Below are positions 2,548-57,400 of a stretch of 59,958 nucleotides of DNA, piece by piece. The stretch covers positions 1 through 59,958 of the forward strand of contig CBCSKA010000135.1 in NCBI GenBank assembly GCA_965140885.1. Direction: 5' to 3'. Position numbers and translations under genes: made by a program. This DNA is from Legionellaceae bacterium. Its GTDB lineage: Bacteria > Pseudomonadota > Gammaproteobacteria > CBCSKA01. A model generated the notes under the pieces. It saw nothing but the letters and a program-made list of their open reading frames with translations. It was not told the origin of the DNA and did no database searches. How positions within the stretch are numbered: position 1 is the first letter of the stretch; each line of letters starts with the position of its first letter.

Positions 2548-2955
2548 ATGCAACGACCAAATCCTTCTTCCAATCTGGGTATGCATCATATTGCTTTATT
2601 TGTTCAAAATTTTGAATCTTGTCTATTTTTTTATTCAGAATTATTGGACATGTCTATTGAATGGCAACCTGATGAAGATAATGTTTATTTATCATCTGGC
2701 AGTGAAAATTTAGCCTTACATCGGATCCCTCAACATATCACTTTTGCGCCGAATCAAGTATTAGACCATATCGGTTTTATTTTACGTACGCCGGAAGATG
2801 TTGATATTTGGTATAATTATTTGGTCGCTAATCAAGTTACTATAAAGGCTGAGCCAAGAATCCATCGAGATGGTGCAAAAAGTTTTTATTGTTTAGATCC
2901 TGATGGGAATACGGTACAAATGCTGTATCATCCTCCTCTAAGCCAAGGTAAATAA
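2548..2955 (+). CDS. VOC/glyoxalase-family protein
   Basis: 135 aa. Pattern MHHIALFV ... LDHIGF ... CLDPDGN is typical of the vicinal-oxygen-chelate fold. Confidence 0.72.
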   Translation: MQRPNPSSNLGMHHIALFVQNFESCLFFYSELLDMSIEWQPDEDNVYLSSGSENLALHRIPQHITFAPNQVLDHIGFILRTPEDVDIWYNYLVANQVTIKAEPRIHRDGAKSFYCLDPDGNTVQMLYHPPLSQGK

Positions 2956-2962
2956 ATTTTAA

Positions 2963-3397
2963 TTATTGATTTAAGTCATGTAATTTTAATTCGCAACCGG
3001 CTTCACGATAAATACGATAATGATTTCTCGCTTTATGCTTTAACTCTTCTTGATTAGGGATAATTTCAATCACGCGTTGAAATTGTTTATATTGCGAAAT
3101 AATTTCTTCTGTCAAATTAATTAATATATCAGAAAAATTTTCTGGGGGAGGAATAATCCCAATTTGAATGGGAGAATTTAACGGATTGTTTTCATTATAA
3201 ATTTGATGAGGGATGAAACTAATATCACGAAAAATCCATAATATATCATCTAATTGTTGGGCTATTTCTAGTGTATTGACTTGAATATAAATTTTATGGT
3301 TTTGCTGATAAGCTTTATCAATAATTCGGCACGCGCAATGAAGGCGCGCGCCTAACGTGTTTTCTTTTAATAAGTAAAAATCAATACGGGGCATCAT
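2963..3397 (-). CDS. holC: DNA polymerase III chi subunit
   Basis: 144 aa. N-terminus RIDFYLL and overall length match HolC. It sits immediately downstream of pepA, the conserved pepA-holC arrangement. Confidence 0.8.
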   Translation of the reverse strand: MMPRIDFYLLKENTLGARLHCACRIIDKAYQQNHKIYIQVNTLEIAQQLDDILWIFRDISFIPHQIYNENNPLNSPIQIGIIPPPENFSDILINLTEEIISQYKQFQRVIEIIPNQEELKHKARNHYRIYREAGCELKLHDLNQ

Positions 3398-3456
3398 TTA
3401 TCAAAAAATCTTTTTATAAAGATAGGTATTGATAAGCAATTTTTTCTCGTCATAAT

Positions 3457-4989
3457 TTATTGCCCACATTTTTTAAGTAAATAATGAAGTAATAACGAAA
3501 TAGGTCGTCCTGTCGCACCTTTTTCTTTTCCATTTTTCCAAGCTGTACCTGCAATATCTAAATGTGCCCATACATAATCTTTTGTAAATTGACTTAAAAA
3601 ACAGGCAGCAGTAATACTACCGGCAATTGCTGGGACAGCAATATTAGCTATATCTGCAAAATTACTATTTAATAATTCTTGATAATCTTCATGGATAGGT
3701 AATTGCCAAACAAGATCAGTGGATTCTTCTCCCGCTGTGTATAATTCATTAGCCAAAGATTGATTATTACTTAGCAATCCTGACATGACATTACCTAAGG
3801 CAATAACAACGGCCCCTGTTAACGTTGCAATATCAATCACTATTTCAGGATTAAATTTATTACAAAAAGTTAAGGCATCACAGAGAATTAAACGACCTTC
3901 TGCATCAGTATTAAGAATTTCAATCGTTTTTCCTGCCATACTTTTTACAATATCACCGGGTTTAACCGCTTTTCCACTCGGTAAATTTTCTGTTGCAGGA
4001 ATGACACCGACAATATTAATGGGTAATTGTAATTCTGCAACCGCTTTAATAAGGCCTAATACCGATGCAGCACCACACATATCATATTTCATTTCATCCA
4101 TTGCTAGCCCAGGTTTAAGGGAAATACCACCTGAATCAAATGTAATTCCTTTACCCACAAAAACAATGGGCTTACTCATTTCTTTACTACCTTGATATTC
4201 GATTGTTATTAATTTAGGCGGTTGATCACTTCCTTGAGCTACGGCAAGTAACGCTCCCATCCCTAATATTTGCATATCTGCTTTTTCAAATACAGTCACT
4301 TTTAAATTATTATAATGCGTTGTCAATTCAAAAGCTTGTTCTGCTAAATAGGTTGGGGTACAAATATTGCCCGGTAAATTACCTAAATTACGTGCTAAGG
4401 TAATCCCTTTATCTAATGCGGAACTTATTTCTGCTGCAGCGTTAATATCCTTTTGCTCCTGTTGAGTCGCAGCAGGAATCAGCATACTATTAAGTGCCGG
4501 TGGTTTTTTCTTATTATTCGTTTTTAATGAAGCAAAAGTGTATTTATTTTCGAGGATAATTTGAAATAAATGTTGAACTTTCCATTTAAAACTGCGATGG
4601 CCAGATAACGCGATTTCAGGCAAAAAGCAAATAGCATTTTGACTTCCTGTACTCATTAATACCGTTGTCATTTTAGTCATCATTTTTCTGTATTGATAAC
4701 CATCTATGGATTCAGGTTTTCCACAGCCTACTAATAAAATACGCTTAACAGGGCGTTCACCGGGTATTGGAATTAATAATGTTTGGCCTAACTCTCCTTG
4801 AATATCACCTTGGTTAATCACTTGACTCATTATACAATTGAATTGTGTATCAAGCATTTTCGCACTGGGAGATAAAACCTGGTTTTCAAATATACCAACA
4901 ATTAAGCAATCAGCAGGAAAAAGGTCTTTGCCTAATGCATCATAAATTGTTGTGGAAAATTCATTAAGAGTAATAGATTGAAATTCCAT
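3457..4989 (-). CDS. pepA: Leucyl aminopeptidase (M17)
   Basis: 510 aa. M17 signature NTDAEGRLILCDAL and VGKGITFDSGG. Divergent from lptF as in other gammaproteobacteria. Confidence 0.95.
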   Translation of the reverse strand: MEFQSITLNEFSTTIYDALGKDLFPADCLIVGIFENQVLSPSAKMLDTQFNCIMSQVINQGDIQGELGQTLLIPIPGERPVKRILLVGCGKPESIDGYQYRKMMTKMTTVLMSTGSQNAICFLPEIALSGHRSFKWKVQHLFQIILENKYTFASLKTNNKKKPPALNSMLIPAATQQEQKDINAAAEISSALDKGITLARNLGNLPGNICTPTYLAEQAFELTTHYNNLKVTVFEKADMQILGMGALLAVAQGSDQPPKLITIEYQGSKEMSKPIVFVGKGITFDSGGISLKPGLAMDEMKYDMCGAASVLGLIKAVAELQLPINIVGVIPATENLPSGKAVKPGDIVKSMAGKTIEILNTDAEGRLILCDALTFCNKFNPEIVIDIATLTGAVVIALGNVMSGLLSNNQSLANELYTAGEESTDLVWQLPIHEDYQELLNSNFADIANIAVPAIAGSITAACFLSQFTKDYVWAHLDIAGTAWKNGKEKGATGRPISLLLHYLLKKCGQ

Positions 4990-12885: not shown

Positions 12886-13449
12886 CTACAATCTAAAAGA
12901 TATTCTTTCTGGTAAAATAGGCGTAGCCGTGATTTTTTTTTGTTCATTTTCCAACCATTTCAAGATATTTTCACCTTCCCATATTAATGTTTTATTTTTT
13001 ATTTTATTTAAATTATCAAAATTTAAAGTTTTGGGTCTAGTATTAATACCATAAATTTGCCAAAGAGAAGCTTTATTTTTTTGAGGCGGAACTATAAACG
13101 TTATTGTATTATTAAAATCAGTAGGCACATAAGCAGTTAAAAGAACATTTTTTTCTTTTAAAATTTCAATTAGTTTCGTAGCAAATTCTAAAAGATTGTG
13201 ATCTTTATTTACCTCAGAAGTAATAAAATAAACTGTATGGATAGTTGTAGGTAAATTTTTTTCGAGTATCGTATTTGCAAATGTTTCAGGCTTTATTTTT
13301 TTCCAAAATCTATCTTCGGCATCTACGTCAAGGATAATCAATGCTCCATCCATGGGATTAAGGCCCGTAATATTATCTGTTGATAAATTTTTCAATTTTG
13401 TAAGTTCAGTTTCCGTGATTTTTATTTTTTCAGATAGTGTTATTAACAT
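12886..13449 (-). CDS. Hypothetical protein (orphan, islet gene)
   Basis: 187-aa ORF, very A+T-rich, no motif recognised. Its start codon lies 21 bp from repeat copy A. Confidence 0.5.
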   Translation of the reverse strand: MLITLSEKIKITETELTKLKNLSTDNITGLNPMDGALIILDVDAEDRFWKKIKPETFANTILEKNLPTTIHTVYFITSEVNKDHNLLEFATKLIEILKEKNVLLTAYVPTDFNNTITFIVPPQKNKASLWQIYGINTRPKTLNFDNLNKIKNKTLIWEGENILKWLENEQKKITATPILPERISFRL

Positions 13450-13470: not shown

Positions 13471-13742
13471 TTCACCCGCTGTCGGCCAAGGAAGCGATGA
13501 AGGAGCGAGGCCGATAGTCCCTGGTAGACCGTAGTGCCGGATGTTTTGCCGAAGGCAAAATATAAGGCCCACAAAACGGTCGACAAGTCATTTGTGGAAG
13601 TGAAGTTATGACACCTAGTCGTGTCATAACGAGCGTACGCAGGACGGCCAGGGCTGCCGCAGGCATACTTGTCGACAATTTTTGTCCCTTTTGGGGACTT
13701 GGATGTCCCAAAAGGGGTCTCAAAAATGGCGACACTATCGTA
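13471..13742. repeat. 272-bp G+C-rich helix-dense element, copy A (candidate structured ncRNA or non-autonomous mobile element)
   Basis: Near-identical to 33969-34240 (7 substitutions, no indels, same orientation; manual alignment). Many hand-verified complementary segments (see findings). G-T appositions favour + strand RNA weakly. Confidence 0.85.
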
Positions 13743-13794: not shown

Positions 13795-14940
13795 ATGAAA
13801 GAAACGTCTAACAGTATAAATCCAACAAAAAATGTTATTTTAATGCTTGGTATCGATAAAACAACACATAATTCTGCTATTGGTATAGCTACGAAATTAA
13901 AAGAAAAAAATGGTAAAGAGTATGAAATAAGATTGCTTAAAGAAAACTGTTTAAATGGATTAAAAAAAGAAGATATTAGTGAAATTACTCTTGTTGGGCA
14001 TACGGATGAAAAGCAAGATAAAACGAATTCTGTTATGAAAAAAACTTATGGGAAAAATAATGATCGGGAAATAACTGATAATGATCAAAAAGCCGAAAAA
14101 GGTTTTAATGCAAAAGAATTTGTGAATTACTTTGATACTCAAGTTAGTAACGCTAATTTTGATAAAAAAGATATTAAAGTTTTACGTTGTTTTGGTTGCG
14201 AACTCGGTTTCGTTGATTTATTTCATGGGAATACTGTACCACTTGCGCAAGAATTAGTTAATGAATTTGTATTGAAAGACTATGATTTAAAATTATATGC
14301 TTTTGCTTTTGATAATAACCATGGAGAAAATATACAAGCACTACGTTTAGTTATTGCTGAAGATGGTAAGGCTGAATATTATGGCTTCGCACAAAAAAAT
14401 AAAAATATAATGAATATGGAATCAAGAATAGCAGATACAAAAGATGAGATTGAAAAAATAAAAACAAAAATAAAAGAAGTTGAAATAAATGATCCCTTTC
14501 GCCTAAAACACGGATTTTCTTATTTATTACCAAAATTAACGACTAAAATTGTCAAAGAAGAAAAATTAAAGAATTTATGTGGTTTTAATATAGAGTTAAG
14601 AGAAAAAGAAAAAGAATTGAAAAAAAAAGATAAAGAATATAATGATTTAAAAATTGTATTATTTAAGTATGGTGGAAATCCTATAGAGTTGATTGATGAA
14701 GAAAAAAATTGTTTTAAAGCAGAAACAAAAGGCAATACAATAGATTATCCTGAAAAAAAAATAGATGAAAAAATAATTAATTCTGACGAAAATATTCCTA
14801 AAGTAATTCCAATACAGGAAGATAAAGAATGTAGAAATAGTAAGCGTTATTCTTCTATGGAATCTTTGTTTAATAATAAAGCGATTAATGAAAAAAATAA
14901 TACAGAAAACGAAGCGATATTTAAAAATAATATGAAATAA
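13795..14940 (+). CDS. Hypothetical protein: N-terminal alpha/beta domain with His/Cys dyad pattern plus K/E/N-rich coiled C-terminus
   Basis: 381-aa ORF. aaagggaaattttATG provides a purine-rich RBS. ITLVGH(69)T and VLRCFGC(135)ELG each follow a hydrophobic strand. The C-terminal half is low-complexity K/E/N. Confidence 0.6.
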   Translation: MKETSNSINPTKNVILMLGIDKTTHNSAIGIATKLKEKNGKEYEIRLLKENCLNGLKKEDISEITLVGHTDEKQDKTNSVMKKTYGKNNDREITDNDQKAEKGFNAKEFVNYFDTQVSNANFDKKDIKVLRCFGCELGFVDLFHGNTVPLAQELVNEFVLKDYDLKLYAFAFDNNHGENIQALRLVIAEDGKAEYYGFAQKNKNIMNMESRIADTKDEIEKIKTKIKEVEINDPFRLKHGFSYLLPKLTTKIVKEEKLKNLCGFNIELREKEKELKKKDKEYNDLKIVLFKYGGNPIELIDEEKNCFKAETKGNTIDYPEKKIDEKIINSDENIPKVIPIQEDKECRNSKRYSSMESLFNNKAINEKNNTENEAIFKNNMK

Positions 14941-20940: not shown

Positions 20941-20978
20941 TTCGCGTGAATATAACTTATTCACGCGAAGTTTTTTTT
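20941..20978. terminator. Terminator hairpin shared by convergent greA and the 792-aa gene
   Basis: ttcgcgtgaata-taac-ttattcacgcgaa followed by T8. The minus-strand stop codon (20977-20979) abuts the T-run. Confidence 0.8.
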
Positions 20979-23355
20979 ACCTGCCATTGCGAAGCGTAAC
21001 TGTTTGATTTGTATAGCTTTTGCTATCTTTTACTGATTTAAAGAAACCTATATCAGCTTTAATTAATTCCCCTTTAGTTTTTAGTTGTCCAAATGGAATG
21101 ATAGGGTAACTTTTAAATTTGTTAATGGCGACAGTAATGTTATCGCCATTAACAATATCTTTAATTAATTGCGTCAATTTATTGATAAACGAATTATTTT
21201 TTTCATTAAAATTCATTAAATGATCACAGATATTTTCAATAGCTTTATCTGGCGCCTTATCGTAATGAATATTCTTGATATCAATTTTTAATTGGTTGAA
21301 TGTTTCTTCGAATAACTTATATTTTGGGTCATCCGCTAGTAAATTCAATGCTTTTAACAGATTTGCTTTAATGGCGAGGATGTAAATAAATTGGTATTCT
21401 TCCTTTTTAATTAGGTTTGTGTTTTTTCTCAAAATATTAATAATAGTATCTGTATTTTCGTAGAGAATATTTTCTAAAAAAAATAAAGGAATTTTGAGGT
21501 TAACTAACCAAGATTTAATATCTGTTATCACCGATGTTTGTGAATTATCATTCAAGGTATCGAGCAATTGTTTATTAAGTATTTTAGCCGCCTCTTTATA
21601 TATCGCTTCTAATTCAAGATCGGATCCATTTTTGTTTAAATAGGTATCTATATTTTCCATAATAGCTATTATGGAAATTTCTTTGGGTTTTTTTTCTTGT
21701 TGTAATAAATCAAGAGCAGCTTTTAGAATTTTTAGTGTATTTTCTTTATCACTTAAGTTTATTGTACTAGATAAATTGGTAAGTTCAGTGTCATATTGTA
21801 TTATGAAGTTTGTTAAGGCTTTTTGATAAATCGCTTCAAAACGTTCTTCTACTATTTTTGGATCATTAAGAATTTGTCGTTTTCTTTCTTTATAATTAAA
21901 AGATAGGTTATATAACTCATTTTCTGTTTTTATTTGGTGCAAAATAGCATTTTTATTTTGTGATAAAATTAAAATAAAATCGACAGAATTAAATAATTCT
22001 GTTTTTAGCTGACTAAATCGATTATCGATAAATTTGAGATATTTATTAAAGGCGGTATCATCTGGGATATGGGGTTTTATCATTTTTCCTATATCATCTT
22101 GAGATAGCAGAGCAAGTTTAATGAATGTTTTCCATTTATCAATACGAAAGTCAATATGCTCAGCCATATTGTTTAAACCAAATTCTTTATCAGCAGGAGG
22201 GTTTTCCTTGACTGAACCGTTTGTTTTTTCAAAATAGATAGCGTATTTATGAGGGTTATTGTAAGTACTGTTTGTTGGGCTTGGTGTGAAAATATTTTCC
22301 ATGTCTTTAGCATTTGGTTTGCTTGAAAATATAAATGTAAAGAGTTCGGGAGTAGCAGTATTTTTGTTTAATATGTTAAATTGATACTCTTTCTCTTGAA
22401 AAAATGCGGTATAATTTTGATCAAAATCAATACGAGATAATTGCCTTTCACTATTGAAACCGTAATTATTCGCGTGTAAGTCATTTTCACCCATAGCATA
22501 ACTTGCCGCCATTAAGCTACCCATCCCTGCTTTAATGAGTCTATCATTAGGAATATCTTTAACTATGGGTTTTTTTGTGATTCGATCCGAAGGTATTATT
22601 TTCGTGTCACAAAAACTTTGAAATTCAGGAATGTGTGTAGAGTAGCTACCTATTATGTCTTTCTTTTCGTTTATAATGAGCCTAACTTTTGGTACTCTAT
22701 CAGGTCCTAATAGATAACGATAAAATTCAGCAGTACATACTTCACCTATAGGTTTGTTTAACTGTAAATCATCTGGGTGATAAAATTTTGCATAGCGAAT
22801 AGTGGTTGCATAAGGTAGCGCTTTCTCTTTCTTTTCGGGCGTTTTTTCTTTTTCTGGCTTTTCCTTTTTTAGCATTTTTTTTGTAAAATGGGTCGTTTCT
22901 AGGCCTATTTGAATGTCAAATTTCTCTGTTATTTTATCCAAAAATATTTTTATTCCATTTTTACTAACGGAATGCTTCGCTGGATTAAGAAGAGTATTTC
23001 TAATAGCATCATATAATTTTTTATTAAATTCACTTTCTAATAAGGTTTGTTTTATGAGAATTTCTTTATCATTGATAGCTGTATACTGAAGATGTTTGAT
23101 TTTACTGGGATCAATTATTTTTTCATGTTTTAAAACGAATTCAAGAAGGTTATTTTCATTCAGATAAAAATAAATACATCCTGTGTTAAATTCTTGAGGA
23201 AAATCTTTATTTTTTATAAACCAGGCGTTTTCTGCCTGAATTTCCGTAGGTACAAAATTTTTATCAAGTTTATTTTTGTAACCATAAATATTTATATTAT
23301 TGTTAATTAAATTTGGCATAAAAAGCTCGCTATATTTTTCTAATTTATTATTCAT
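20977..23355 (-). CDS. Large orphan protein with atypical protein-kinase-like core plus long helical C-terminal region (candidate secreted effector)
   Basis: 792-aa uninterrupted ORF. K190 (IRYAKF), E210 (CTAEFYRYL), D292-x-H-x-x-N297 (GENDLHANNYGF), D310 (RIDFD). Spacings K-E +20, D-N +5 and D-D +18 are close to canonical kinases. K/E/P-rich linker KKEKPEKEKTPEKKEK. Confidence 0.7.
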   Translation of the reverse strand: MNNKLEKYSELFMPNLINNNINIYGYKNKLDKNFVPTEIQAENAWFIKNKDFPQEFNTGCIYFYLNENNLLEFVLKHEKIIDPSKIKHLQYTAINDKEILIKQTLLESEFNKKLYDAIRNTLLNPAKHSVSKNGIKIFLDKITEKFDIQIGLETTHFTKKMLKKEKPEKEKTPEKKEKALPYATTIRYAKFYHPDDLQLNKPIGEVCTAEFYRYLLGPDRVPKVRLIINEKKDIIGSYSTHIPEFQSFCDTKIIPSDRITKKPIVKDIPNDRLIKAGMGSLMAASYAMGENDLHANNYGFNSERQLSRIDFDQNYTAFFQEKEYQFNILNKNTATPELFTFIFSSKPNAKDMENIFTPSPTNSTYNNPHKYAIYFEKTNGSVKENPPADKEFGLNNMAEHIDFRIDKWKTFIKLALLSQDDIGKMIKPHIPDDTAFNKYLKFIDNRFSQLKTELFNSVDFILILSQNKNAILHQIKTENELYNLSFNYKERKRQILNDPKIVEERFEAIYQKALTNFIIQYDTELTNLSSTINLSDKENTLKILKAALDLLQQEKKPKEISIIAIMENIDTYLNKNGSDLELEAIYKEAAKILNKQLLDTLNDNSQTSVITDIKSWLVNLKIPLFFLENILYENTDTIINILRKNTNLIKKEEYQFIYILAIKANLLKALNLLADDPKYKLFEETFNQLKIDIKNIHYDKAPDKAIENICDHLMNFNEKNNSFINKLTQLIKDIVNGDNITVAINKFKSYPIIPFGQLKTKGELIKADIGFFKSVKDSKSYTNQTVTLRNGR

Positions 23356-23546
23356 TTAACTACAGTAATTATATATTATGAATTACTTTTTTACACAATA
23401 GGGTATAAGCAAATTATTGTAAAATCGCTTAAATTAAAGCATTATTGACAACATTTGATGAATATACATAAAGCCTTTATTAGGTTATCATGCTTTTTAT
23501 TGTTACGTTTTATGACTGTGTAAATAATAGCACATTGGAGAAAAAT

Positions 23547-24851
23547 ATGGGCAGACAATCCACAACTAATGTTTCTCATTACTTAGAAAAAACAAATCAT
23601 GTAGCCGATAGTATAGAATTTACGGGTATACTGGGCTCCGCAGTAAATAGTGCTTGGTTTGAAACATTGATGAAATATGCAGGAACTTATCTTTTTACTT
23701 TTGCATTAATATTTAATGTTATTAAATTAGGTTTTTCAATTTATAATTTTTTCTATTCACGTAATAAAAATGCAAGAGAAGCTGCTTCTTTATTATGGAC
23801 AATGCTACAAGTTAGCTTAATTGCTGTTGCTGTGATTGGGATATTGGTTGCTTCAACAACGTTTGCTGTGATAACACCTATACTTTTTTTTACTGCCATA
23901 GCCGCAGATGCATTAAGGAATATTGCGCTACTTGCATGGAACTTCTTCCAATTTATTCGATTAGCTATTTTAATCGGCCAAGAAAAAAACAATAATCTCA
24001 TCGCTGGCTTACAATATACGGAATTAAAAAATAAGTATTTAGCGAATATGCGTCAACATTTTATAGGTTCTGTTGTTCTTTTAGCAGTGGCTACCGCAAT
24101 TTTATTTATTTTTGTATTTCCGCATATTGGATTAGGTGCTGTATCTGCAACTATTGTAACAGTAGGAGCTTTGAATATTTCAGTCGCAGGACTTACAGGG
24201 GTTATTGCAGGTATTTCACTTATAGGTTCATTGATGCCTTTGATATGGCAAACCTTTCAAAAAGCTTGCAATTATTTATATAATTCTCTGTATAGCGTTA
24301 AAATTAAATATCAGCCAGTAAAAGATAATGATGAATCAAATAAAATTGATACTCAAGAAAAACTTGAAAATTTAAGTAATGCAACATTACACTTTAATGC
24401 GTTTATGTATCAAAGTAATCATAGAGAATTATTGATTAAGAATATAAGTTATAAAAAGCCAACATTAGCACTAAAGGCATTAATTGAGATGCTGGATCAA
24501 AAAATAAAATCTATTGATGATCAAATGAAGGCGAGTCAACATACTTTTTTTACTTTCACTCAAACGTATCGTTATGAAAAATTAGAAGCATTAAAGAAAA
24601 TAAAGGATTTTTTAGAAAATGGAGTAACTGAAGATAATTTGGGATCAAAAATAACCACATTTGATGGTTTAATTGATTTTATTGAAAGACAGTATCCCAA
24701 TATTCAACAATCATTCTTTAAAGAAGAAAGTGATACTGGCAATTTGTTAAAAGCGCTTAAATGTTATGCTGAAAAATTTAATTTAACTCAAAAATCAATT
24801 AGTGAAGACAGTAGTGAATCAATCACAGAGGCTAAACCTAGCTTTAATTAA
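23547..24851 (+). CDS. Orphan polytopic membrane protein with soluble helical C-terminal domain
   Basis: The ORF opens at 23490. The ATG at 23547 follows ggag. About 5-6 hydrophobic helices in residues ~50-250, then ~180 aa hydrophilic. Acidic/Ser-rich tail SISEDSSESITEAKPSFN. Confidence 0.62.
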   Translation: MGRQSTTNVSHYLEKTNHVADSIEFTGILGSAVNSAWFETLMKYAGTYLFTFALIFNVIKLGFSIYNFFYSRNKNAREAASLLWTMLQVSLIAVAVIGILVASTTFAVITPILFFTAIAADALRNIALLAWNFFQFIRLAILIGQEKNNNLIAGLQYTELKNKYLANMRQHFIGSVVLLAVATAILFIFVFPHIGLGAVSATIVTVGALNISVAGLTGVIAGISLIGSLMPLIWQTFQKACNYLYNSLYSVKIKYQPVKDNDESNKIDTQEKLENLSNATLHFNAFMYQSNHRELLIKNISYKKPTLALKALIEMLDQKIKSIDDQMKASQHTFFTFTQTYRYEKLEALKKIKDFLENGVTEDNLGSKITTFDGLIDFIERQYPNIQQSFFKEESDTGNLLKALKCYAEKFNLTQKSISEDSSESITEAKPSFN

Positions 24852-33968: not shown

Positions 33969-34240
33969 TTCATTCGCTGTCGGCCAAGGAAGCGACGAAG
34001 GAGCGAGGCCGATAGTCCCTGGTAGACCGTAGTACCGGATGTTTTGCCGAAGGCAAAATATAAGGTCCACAACACGGTCGACAAGTCATTTGTGGAAGTG
34101 AAGTTATGACACCTAGTCGTGTCATAACGAGCGTACGCAGGACGGCCAGGGCTGCCGCAGGCATACTTGTCGACAATTTTTGTCCCTTTTGGGGACTTGG
34201 ATGTCCCAAAAGGGGCCTCAAAAATGGCGACACTATCGTA
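33969..34240. repeat. 272-bp G+C-rich helix-dense element, copy B
   Basis: Same orientation as 13471-13742, with 7 substitutions and no indels. Intergenic: 118 nt after the activator stop and 156 nt before the mutT start. Confidence 0.85.
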
Positions 34241-48731: not shown

Positions 48732-50096
48732 GTGGCAATTAGCATTTTTGATTTATTTTCAATTGGTATCGGCCCATCAAGTTCACATACCGTGGGTCCA
48801 ATGAAAGCGGCTTATAAATTTATTCAAAGCATGAATCAACTGGCTGACGTTTATCAAATTAAAATAGAATTATTTGGTTCATTAGCATTAACTGGGAAAG
48901 GACATGGTACGGATATCGCCATTTTAAATGGTTTAGAAAATAAATTACCTCACTTAGTTGATCCTGATACAGTAAGAAGTAGAGCCGAAGCCATTATCGC
49001 CAACCAAACGTTATTAGTAGCCAATCAATATCCCATCCCATTTATTCCTGAAAAGCATTTAATCTTTCATTATCAAGAATTATTACCTTTACATACGAAT
49101 GGAATGCGATTTTCGGCTTATGATAAAAAAGAAGAATGTATCAAACAAGCGATTTATTATTCCATCGGTGGTGGTTTCATTATTACCGAAGATGAAAATA
49201 AGCAAGTTACTTCAAATATAGCGCTTCTATATCCATTTAAAACAGCGAAAGAATTATGGCAACATTGTCATAATAACCAATTAAAAATTAAAGATGTCAT
49301 GTTAGCCAATGAATTAATATGGCGTAGCGAAGAAGAGATACGAACACATTTACTTCAAATAGCCGATATAATGCAGAATTGCATTGAAAAAGGCTGCCAT
49401 ACAGAAGGGATATTACCGGGTGGTTTAAATGTTAAACGCCGTGCTTCCCCCTTGTATAAAAAACTACAATCAAAAGATTTACCAAAAAAAACATCTTTTC
49501 CAGAATTATCATTATGGCCTACGGTTTATGCAATGGCCGTCAATGAAGAAAATGCCGCAGGAGGGCGTATTGTTACGGCGCCAACGAATGGTGCAGCAGG
49601 AATTATACCTGCGGTATTAACTTGCTATCGTCGTTTTTTTGAAAGCGCAAGTGAAGATGGCATTATTGAATTTTTGTTAACGGCGGGCGCTATAGCGATT
49701 CTTTATAAAACCAGTGCATCTATTTCTGGGGCTGAAGTGGGTTGTCAAGGTGAAGTGGGCGTTGCGTGTTCTATGGCAGCGGGTGCGCTGACAGCCGTTT
49801 TAGGTGGTACTTTGAAACAAATTGAAAATGCTGCAGAAATGGCAATGGAACATCACTTGGGGATGACGTGTGACCCTGTCGCAGGTTTAGTGCAAATACC
49901 TTGTATTGAGCGTAATGGTGTTGCTGCCGAGAAAGCCATTCGGCTTTCTCAATTAGCATTACTTGAAACAGGGGAAGATAAAAAAATTTCCCTCGATAAA
50001 GTTATTTTGACTATGCTGCAAACCGGAAAAGATATGAAGAGTATCTATAAAGAAACCTCTTTGGGTGGTTTGGCTGCCAATATTGCGGGATGTTAA
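48732..50096 (+). CDS. sdaA: L-serine ammonia-lyase (Fe-S, single-chain)
   Basis: 454 aa, GTG start. [22 protein letters not shown]-terminus and Cys-containing C-terminal domain. Confidence 0.93.
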
Positions 50097-56464: not shown

Positions 56465-57400
56465 ATGAATTTATCATATAATCCCTTTTGCCGATTAACC
56501 ACAAACAATAAATATCGTAAAACAAACAAATTGTTTTCTTCCCACTTTTCTTCCTTTTTTCAAAGATTAAAAGAAACATATATGATTTTCAATGGTTCTT
56601 CTTCTACAGAGGATTTATCGGTAGGTATAATGGATTATATCATTCCTATTTCATTATTTTTTTTGGTAATGCAGTTTTATGTTATGAAAGCACCTAAGCT
56701 GATAAGGTTTTTGTTAACTCCTATCATATTAATTCTTCATTTACCGTTTGCATTGTTAAAAACGATAATTTCTTCAGTATTAACAGCATTGGTTTCTCCT
56801 ATTGTTTTAATAATTCATTTAGCCTTAAAAGGAAAAACAACGGAATTAAAAAATCAATCAGAAAAAGTCTTAGTAGCGAGAGCAGTTGGAAATAAATTTG
56901 AATCTTCTCATACTGAACAGGAAGATCCTGTTATCCTTGCAAACGACTATAATAAAGAAGAAAAGAGTTTATCAGCACTGGGAAATAATAATCCCTTAAA
57001 AAGTAAATTTGATTTATTGTATCTACTTATTAAAATGAAAATTTCTGTTAAGCCTTTTTATGTTGATTATACAAATGGAAATGTACCCACTCTTTTTAGT
57101 CCTTCAAGGTTTAATTTATCTCAGCAGATGAATAAAAAAATGTATTTAAAAATTTTTGTGAAACATCCAGAACAACTTAAAACATATCTCAAAAGCGGTT
57201 TAATTGAAACAATGGGAATAATAGAAGTATCAAAAAAAAATGCTAATGCAATTGAAGCTATGCTTAAAACTAATTATTTCAATATCGTAGATGAGCTTAG
57301 CTTACAAGAAATTTTAACATTAGAAAGTGAAATATCTAAAGATGAGAAAAAAGAAATAAGCGAAAATAAAAGGGAAGTTGTTAGTTCCCTGGAGATGTAA
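56465..57400 (+). CDS. Orphan membrane protein with clustered hydrophobic hairpin and coiled/acidic C-terminus
   Basis: 311-aa ORF (the alternative start M40 is possible). Hydrophobic segments at ~55-120 (IIPISLFFLVMQFYV; LLTPIILILHLPFALL; VLTALVSPIVLIIHLAL). C-terminal EISKDEKKEISENKRE. Confidence 0.55.
   Translation: MNLSYNPFCRLTTNNKYRKTNKLFSSHFSSFFQRLKETYMIFNGSSSTEDLSVGIMDYIIPISLFFLVMQFYVMKAPKLIRFLLTPIILILHLPFALLKTIISSVLTALVSPIVLIIHLALKGKTTELKNQSEKVLVARAVGNKFESSHTEQEDPVILANDYNKEEKSLSALGNNNPLKSKFDLLYLLIKMKISVKPFYVDYTNGNVPTLFSPSRFNLSQQMNKKMYLKIFVKHPEQLKTYLKSGLIETMGIIEVSKKNANAIEAMLKTNYFNIVDELSLQEILTLESEISKDEKKEISENKREVVSSLEM

Follow-up and report, generated by a model that had tools for sequence, protein, structure and literature searches.

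The G+C-rich block at positions 13471-13742 of the window, by which we mean the whole 59,958-nt stretch of Legionellaceae DNA that was analysed, is a single copy of a transposable element without ORFs, ~260-320 bp long and present in many copies, that inserts precisely, with neither a target-site duplication (TSD) nor terminal inverted repeats (TIRs). The first-pass annotation of this DNA had proposed that the block was either a novel structured RNA or a non-autonomous mobile element. The second proposal is confirmed, since the element is multicopy, lies at unrelated sites, is found inside genes, and in one case can be removed to give back an intact ORF. Of the first proposal, a conserved and covarying fold that belongs to no Rfam family stood; the folded molecule may be RNA or single-stranded DNA.

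Copy A of the element occupies 13477-13740 on the + strand (264 bp, CGCTG...GGCGACACTATCG). These ends are the limit of similarity to more than 150 relatives, and they are also the end points whose removal restores a 1044-aa Tn3-family ORF in Legionella antarctica pTUM19329-1, described below. The 272-bp block that was first delimited is real, but its outermost bases (13471-13476, TTCACC, and 13741-13742) lie beyond the end of similarity and are flank, so that the true extent is 264 bp. The block was also described as G+C-rich and dense in helices, which agrees with its 52.2% G+C over 13471-13742, compared to 32.7% for the whole window, and with a predicted fold far outside the range of shuffled sequences (z = -5.9). 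On the same strand, blastn finds a second match at 33969-34240 that is 97.4% identical to 13471-13742, within which copy B of the element spans 33975-34238 (264 bp); any sub-part of copy B is found by adding 20498 to the copy A coordinate. A profile search of the whole window found no third copy. The two copies differ at seven positions, two in the flank (13475-13476) and five inside the element, and none of the differences breaks a helix: 13536 and 13568 change together from G:C to A:U, which is compensatory, 13718 changes a G·U to a G-C pair, and 13498 and 13575 are unpaired in the conserved model.

The gene content of the window is that of an ordinary bacterial chromosome, including gidB, hrcA, dnaK, hsp33, a sigma-54 activator, mutT, ftsH, dnaB, and serine dehydratase. 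The only other stretch above 50% G+C, at 49725-49893, is within the serine dehydratase gene (SDH_beta and SDH_alpha) and has no relation to the element. Five ORFs of considerable length gave no match in Pfam (12886-13449 on the - strand, 13795-14940 on the +, 20977-23355 on the -, 23490-24851 on the +, and 56465-57400 on the +); given that this is a Legionellaceae genome, they may be lineage-specific secreted effectors. For the 381-aa ORF adjoining copy A there is no exact sequence on record.

Counting copies outside the window, as the first-pass annotation had suggested, gave ~18 in the source Legionellaceae MAG (counted by paralogous spurious ORFs, discussed below) and more than 150 relatives in Methylococcales, L. 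antarctica plasmids, one IMG/VR contig, and metagenomes. The description of the block as one of two copies is therefore correct for the window but not for the genome. Full-length relatives were found by blastn on plasmids (two from L. antarctica, one from Methylobacter, and one from Ca. Methylocalor), and there are additional copies on Methylomonas plasmids, one of which has the element in 10 places. A degenerate pattern made from the 5' region of the element matched one IMG/VR contig and at least 84 genome stretches, almost all of them from Methylococcales among the matches listed, with 16 matches in Methylotuvimicrobium buryatense 5G alone. A narrower pattern matched 68 metagenome stretches, and profile searches gave at least 95 matches in the genome stretches and 73 in the 68 metagenome stretches. 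The phage collection had no match to the element by blastn. Copies of 52% G+C that are ~97% identical within a 33% G+C genome mark recent horizontal transfer. In Methylotuvimicrobium we also noted pairs of copies that point the same way and are only a few hundred bases apart (L049, 3988-4296 and 4525-4833; L018, 2-137, 354-614, and 6353-6615), which may reflect local hopping or insertion hot spots.

In all copies the similarity starts at CGCTG; at the other end it stops after a tail of 6-7 nt, which differs between subfamilies and comes after a conserved GGCGAC-type segment. In L. antarctica pTUM19329-1 (L002), the element lies antisense within a Tn3-family transposase gene and splits the gene in two. 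Deleting CGCTG...CTATCG (261 bp) from this copy gives a single 1044-aa ORF, and the restored ORF aligns without gaps across the junction to the solved transposase of Tn4430 (TnpA), so the insertion was precise and made no target-site duplication. A more distant Tn3-family protein has indels near the junction when compared to the restored ORF. No terminal inverted repeats were found at the ends of the more than 150 copies. What had been read from the window alone, that the element has no TIRs, no TSD, and no adjacent transposase, is confirmed. Other near-identical Legionella-type copies are located at the 3' end of an IS91-family transposase gene (L001), in a umuC-like gene, and ~12 codons into a P4-type integrase gene. 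In Methylomicrobium sp. wino1, a copy sits at the end of istA in an IS21 element (istA/istB) that is present twice (L048, 2528-4603, and L087, 5925-8000), so here the element hitch-hikes on another insertion sequence.

The target site is marked by one base on the + strand, a C at position -4 in the left flank (13473 in copy A and 33971 in copy B). Among the matches listed, it is present in 85 of 88 non-redundant left flanks (~97%), a second count gave 51/52, and the metagenome copies that we read have it as well. T is weakly preferred at -5, -2, and -1 (42/88 at -1). No other flank position is conserved on either side, the right flank being featureless, and the target site does not form hairpins, with left and right flanks folding equally weakly. 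We found no head-to-tail or circle junctions in 158 loci. A first count of agreement with GC skew was suggestive of a replication-strand bias (38 loci against 14 at |skew| > 0.03, among the matches listed, possibly strand-biased), but it was not upheld in M. buryatense, where the local skew agreed for 9 of 16 copies. In three pairs of metagenome contigs (L099/L138, L090/L100, and L111/L152-153), there is complete identity from the left flank to the 3' end of the element, exactly where the sequences begin to diverge, and no pair shows the reverse. These could be assembly chimeras at the repeat, recombination between copies, or insertions beside the 3' end.

Folded as RNA, the + strand reaches -111.6 kcal/mol (z = -5.9), and none of 200 dinucleotide shuffles was as good. 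The - strand as RNA has z = -5.2, and with DNA parameters both strands are again outliers (z = -5.2 and -4.8). For covariation we used a MAFFT alignment of 21 members less than 93% identical to one another, except for the two window copies, and a nested model of 51 pairs. In this alignment 94.6% of the cells in the model are paired, compared to 34-49% when partners are slid by 1-3 columns. Both sides have changed in 30 of the 51 pairs (7-14 when slid), and the covariation score is 0.374 (at most 0.109 when slid); for all three measures, 0 of 500 shuffles reach the value. Three G·U pairs recur in all or most of the alignment (21, 19, and 17 of 21 sequences), and because these would be A·C mismatches on the - strand, the + strand is the strand under selection. 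A fold conserved on the + strand in 21 members, with more than half of its pairs changed on both sides, answers the call for a covariation test in the first-pass annotation and strengthens its weak claim for the + strand.

The model consists of six helical parts, all on the + strand. P1, the 5'-terminal hairpin (13478-13487/13509-13518), has a purine-rich loop with two AGCGA motifs. Its inner pairs covary, and it contains a G·U at the first base pair in 21/21 sequences and at the fourth in 19/21. Within the P1 loop (13488-13508), the one or two bases between the AGCGA motifs toggle between T and C among near-identical copies (T/C at 13498 in the window, and TT, CT, CC, or TC in Methylotuvimicrobium). 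P2 is a long-range helix, 13519-13525 CCCUGGU with 13647-13653 GCCAGGG, that encloses the P3 and P4 arms; 99% of its cells are paired and two of its pairs switch, one from C-G to U-A and the other from G-C to A-U. The P3 arm (13527-13581) has the base GACCGU/ACGGUC, then GCC/GGC, and then AUGUUUUGCC-GAA-GGCAAAAUAU. Nine of the 12 distal pairs of P3 have changed on both sides, and the compensatory difference between the window copies at 13536/13568 is in this arm. The P4 arm (13587-13645) is closed by GUC (13587-13589) and UGUG (13593-13596) pairing with CGCA (13638-13641) and GAC (13643-13645), and it ends in a hairpin at 13605-13614/13621-13630. The closing helix changes from GUC/GAC to GCC/GGC in the Methylotuvimicrobium subfamily (seen partly by reading the alignments), and the stem of the hairpin is kept across subfamilies despite different sequence. 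P5 is a mini-hairpin, GCC-GNA-GGC (13656-13664), that is nearly invariant and 97% paired; because it never varied on both sides, it is neutral as evidence for the fold. P6, the long 3' hairpin (13670-13734), reads UGUCGAC..AUUUUUG...CAAAAAU..GGCGACA with a conserved GGA in the end loop, and five of its six basal pairs covary, for example to CGCCAAG/CUUGGCG in Methylotuvimicrobium. After P6 there is an unpaired 3' tail (13735-13740, CUAUCG) that is specific to the subfamily and nearly always ends in G (CUAUCG, CAAUCG, UCCCCG, CGCUUG, and UCGCUG), for which we found no family-wide pairing partner. The geometry of the ends is thus asymmetric, with a hairpin one base from the 5' end and a long hairpin 6-7 bases from the 3' end.

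Most of the helices that had been paired by hand in the first-pass annotation are conserved and covary in the relatives (13478-13487/13509-13518, 13527-13532/13576-13581, 13536-13568, 13605-13630, and 13684-13696/13706-13718). Two did not survive: 13579-13588/13667-13676 is absent in the relatives and competes with the conserved base of P6 (13670-13674/13730-13734), and the match of the tail, 13512-13518/13734-13740, is found only in the window and the Legionella subfamily. The relatives add 13519-13525/13647-13653, the closing helix of the P4 arm, and the mini-hairpin at 13656-13664. There are also internally deleted derivatives of the element in which the P3 and/or P4 arms are lost (L008, 4454-4611; L064, 3774-3977; L081, 6111-6270). 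What remains in them is the 5' part together with the 3' hairpin and tail, suggesting that it is the two ends that must be retained.

On the - strand, an 87-aa ORF spans 13472-13735 in copy A and 33970-34233 in copy B. That the element codes for a protein on this strand is extremely unlikely in our judgment, even though the frame is open in both window copies and its paralogues are annotated ~18 times as 'hypothetical proteins' in the source MAG, one of them fused to a neighbouring gene (279 aa). All three internal amino acid changes between copies A and B are non-synonymous, whereas the base changes keep the helices. The frame is lost in other subfamilies, where the spurious ORFs are in different frames, and a protein search gave matches confined to the source MAG. 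We consider the ORF spurious, probably an annotation artefact of a G+C-rich element. The element would then account for ~18 false 'hypothetical proteins' in the source MAG and many more in other genomes.

Both window copies are upstream of a + strand gene, and the first-pass annotation had noted that the promoters or 5' UTRs of the genes beside copy A must overlap it. A cis-acting leader, promoter element, or riboswitch for the flanking genes is nevertheless very improbable as an explanation of the family. Across loci, copies face either way relative to the adjacent genes without preference (opposite/opposite 12, same/same 7, same/opposite 5, and opposite/same 2), and the orientation looks random; the neighbouring genes are unrelated, there is no fixed sense position upstream of related genes, and several copies interrupt genes, some of them in antisense. 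Such a role is not supported, and the element does not regulate the two genes that flank it in the window.

An all-against-all blastp of the ORFs from ~150 loci found no conserved neighbouring gene, only the spurious ORFs that span the element and unrelated families. In these loci there is no transposase, reverse transcriptase (RT), nuclease, or recombinase at a fixed position, and no Y1 or Y2 HUH transposase, TnpB, or IscB is consistently near the copies. The only TnpB that we saw, at L003, has no sequence relation to the element and was rejected as a partner. We found no autonomous, ORF-bearing version either; every split copy in the profile search (gap of 1.2-1.9 kb) turned out to hold an invader.

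These invaders are of two types. Group II introns, whose RT/maturase ORFs measure 416-438 aa when complete, are found at three sites, always in the sense orientation: in the P1 loop (L045, ~2900-4750, where an intron GTGTG...AC lies between CTTGGA and AACGG, and L055), at model position ~134 (L104, 5985-7895, L125, and L091), and directly 3' of the element (L130). IS110-family transposase genes of 338 aa each are inside the element at L126 (625-2202, model position ~122) and L150 (102-1354, model position ~95). For group II introns the element seems to act as a homing target, and site-specific elements of the IS110 family use the repeat as a landing site, making it a repeated target for both.

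The introns raise the question of whether the element is itself a SINE-like, retro-mobile RNA, with the 264-nt fold as an intermediate that is copied by an RT acting in trans, for example that of the resident group II introns. Structure that is conserved over the full length, both ends included, would suit such an intermediate, as would precise ends without TSD, which are also seen for group II introns, and the RTs of group II introns are present in 6 of ~150 loci, always in sense. However, these RTs belong to invaders inside or beside the element at three different sites, not to partners at a fixed position. The element lacks the 5' GUGYG, the 3' AY, and the domain V of group II introns, matches no ribozyme in Rfam, and has no internal promoter that we could find, and no bacterial mechanism is known for TSD-less retrotransposition in trans of an RNA that is not an intron. 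We think it improbable that the element moves in this way.

Searches of Rfam 15 gave 0 matches for the whole window at the gathering score. Three diverged members searched at E <= 10 gave only hits at the level of chance, and no family turned up repeatedly at one position. The first-pass annotation had likewise recognized no signature of RNase P, tmRNA, 6S, SRP, a group I/II core, or a common riboswitch, and Rfam gave no match to group I or group II introns. No description of the element was found in the searchable literature.

The Rfam searches also bear on the possibility that the element is the orphan gene of a guide or bridge-type RNA (a TnpB/IscB ωRNA or an IS110 bridge RNA), left over after deletions in an autonomous element. 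In size and complexity it is like an ωRNA, the missing TSD and TIRs agree with IS200/IS605 and IS110, and there is a published precedent in ORF-less IS200/IS605 derivatives (PATEs) that carry ωRNAs and rely on proteins acting in trans (PMC10055086). Against this, none of the three diverged members matches HEARO, IS605-orfB, or another Rfam family at E <= 10, and near-identical copies at unrelated targets exclude targeting of the bridge-RNA type. The split copies are intron or IS110 invasions instead of an autonomous ORF-bearing form, and there is no adjacent motif of 4-5 nt in the left flank or in the right flank, which would be the source of a TnpB guide. An orphan guide RNA is unlikely on this evidence.

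The facts that narrow the mechanism are the lack of TSD and TIRs, the asymmetric ends, the hairpins near both ends, the strand-specific conservation, and the one-base target on the same strand. Four of the insertion sequence families in ISfinder are known to insert without target duplication, namely IS200/IS605, IS91, IS110, and IS607. RNA-guided targeting of the IS110 type is excluded because near-identical copies have unrelated flanks, and a crossover at a shared dinucleotide as in IS607 does not fit because positions -1 and -2 vary. With these two set aside, single-strand HUH systems are the closest working analogy.

We tentatively favour the reading of the element as an HUH-like transposon, strand-asymmetric and mobilised in trans, with an RNA-like module in its interior, and regard this as plausible without holding it firmly. 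Its mobilisation would depend on an enzyme acting in trans from another place in the genome, most likely one that handles a single DNA strand, like the HUH-type transposases of IS200/IS605 or IS91/Helitron. P1 at one end, and P6 with the tail at the other, would be the structures by which the ends are recognized. The interior, P2-P5, could act as an RNA-like module after read-through transcription, possibly supplying the machinery of mobilisation or retention with a cofactor or a guide-type RNA, like the ωRNA of some PATEs. An RNA-like role for the interior is suggested because hairpins for end recognition would not by themselves need so much conserved structure. We found no + strand promoter within the element, so the case for RNA lies in the extent of the interior covariation.

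Several observations argue against an HUH-like transposon with an RNA module. No HUH transposase, TnpB, or IscB partner is consistently near the copies, the sole conserved target base is three bases from the end, P1 is unlike P6, the IS91 target tetranucleotide is absent, and the replication-orientation signal is weak (9/16 in M. buryatense). There is also no + strand promoter within the element, no ωRNA-type match in Rfam, and no head-to-tail junction in 158 loci. It is possible, although we are rather doubtful, that the element is the first member of a new class, in which either the structured nucleic acid itself is mobile, as an ORF-less retroelement or ribozyme-like RNA that inserts with no duplication of the target, or it serves as the cofactor RNA of an unrecognised family of transposases with a single-C target. 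If so, its spread in Methylococcales and Legionellaceae would offer group II introns and IS110 elements a landing pad. The element is a tractable model, because M. buryatense and Methylomonas can be genetically manipulated.

Among known systems, the PATEs of IS200/IS605 share many features with the element. Both are short, ORF-less, and multicopy, without TSD or TIRs, with asymmetric ends, subterminal hairpins, and strand-specific structure. Both have an interior able to encode a structured RNA, and PATEs are mobilised in trans, as the element would be. IS200/IS605 elements have a 4-5-nt motif directly beside the left end and similar hairpins at both ends. In contrast, the element has only the C at -4, with positions -3 to -1 varying, and its P1 and P6 differ in sequence and size. 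The 5' hairpin starts one base from the end (P1 from base 2), leaving no room for a 5' DNA guide, and on reading the alignments we saw no covariation between the tail and the bases 5' of P6. The element also lacks a match to ωRNA models and a TnpA, TnpB, or IscB partner.

IS91, ISCR, and Helitron elements are similar in that they have no TSD or TIRs, their 5' terminus is strictly conserved, what they require of the target lies on the 5' side of the initiating end, and close to the 3' end they have a hairpin and then a short tail; in the element, P6 and its 6-7-nt tail are present in every subfamily. The target of IS91 is the tetranucleotide GTTC or CTTG and that of Helitrons is A^T, but neither is found at the initiating end of the element. 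There is no Y2 partner, and the Y2 gene at L001 is itself interrupted by the element. We saw no read-through copies, and the 200-nt conserved interior fold has no counterpart in these families.

HEARO RNA, the ωRNA of IscB (RF02033), is likewise structured, ~300 nt, multicopy, and mobile in behaviour, and it often interrupts genes. The element differs in having no covariance-model match and no HNH or IscB ORF, and its structured strand and flank conservation do not fit the guide and adjacent-motif geometry of IscB. ORF-less group II introns resemble the element in precise insertion without TSD, in high structure, and in dependence on proteins in trans, which for the element is what we infer. 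The element is far smaller, however, with the ends CGCUG and ...CG instead of GUGYG...AY and no domain V; it is found antisense in genes, has no conserved pairing site for a 5' exon, and has no Rfam match. A group I intron was rejected, as T at -1 is found in only 42/88 flanks, there is no Intron_gpI match, and copies are antisense in genes. We also rejected an IS110 bridge or seek RNA, since near-identical Methylotuvimicrobium copies have unrelated flanks with no long shared target. Integron attC sites have R''/R' boxes (RYYYAAC...GTTRRRY) and form arrays beside intI; direct reading of the ends of the element found no such motifs, and its copies are dispersed, so an attC cassette was rejected as well.

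MITEs, REP/REPIN, ERIC, Correia, and RPE repeats are, like the element, intergenic, multicopy, shifted in G+C, and hairpin-forming. They either have TIRs and TSD or are simple palindromes of 20-150 bp, whereas the element is multi-domain, with a long-range helix and asymmetric ends; a DDE-type MITE was rejected because there are no terminal inverted repeats and no target-site duplication. By its behaviour the element is of a kind already known, a non-autonomous, TSD-less transposable element. Its sequence, fold, target rule, and end geometry fit no family tested, and it corresponds to no RNA or transposon family in the catalogues. If the fold is an RNA, a large and strongly covarying structured RNA family has been missing from Rfam, one with hundreds of members among well-studied methanotrophs and relatives of Legionella. 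If it acts as single-stranded DNA, it would belong to a transposition system that lies, in target rule, end geometry, and enzyme, outside the four insertion sequence families that insert without TSD.
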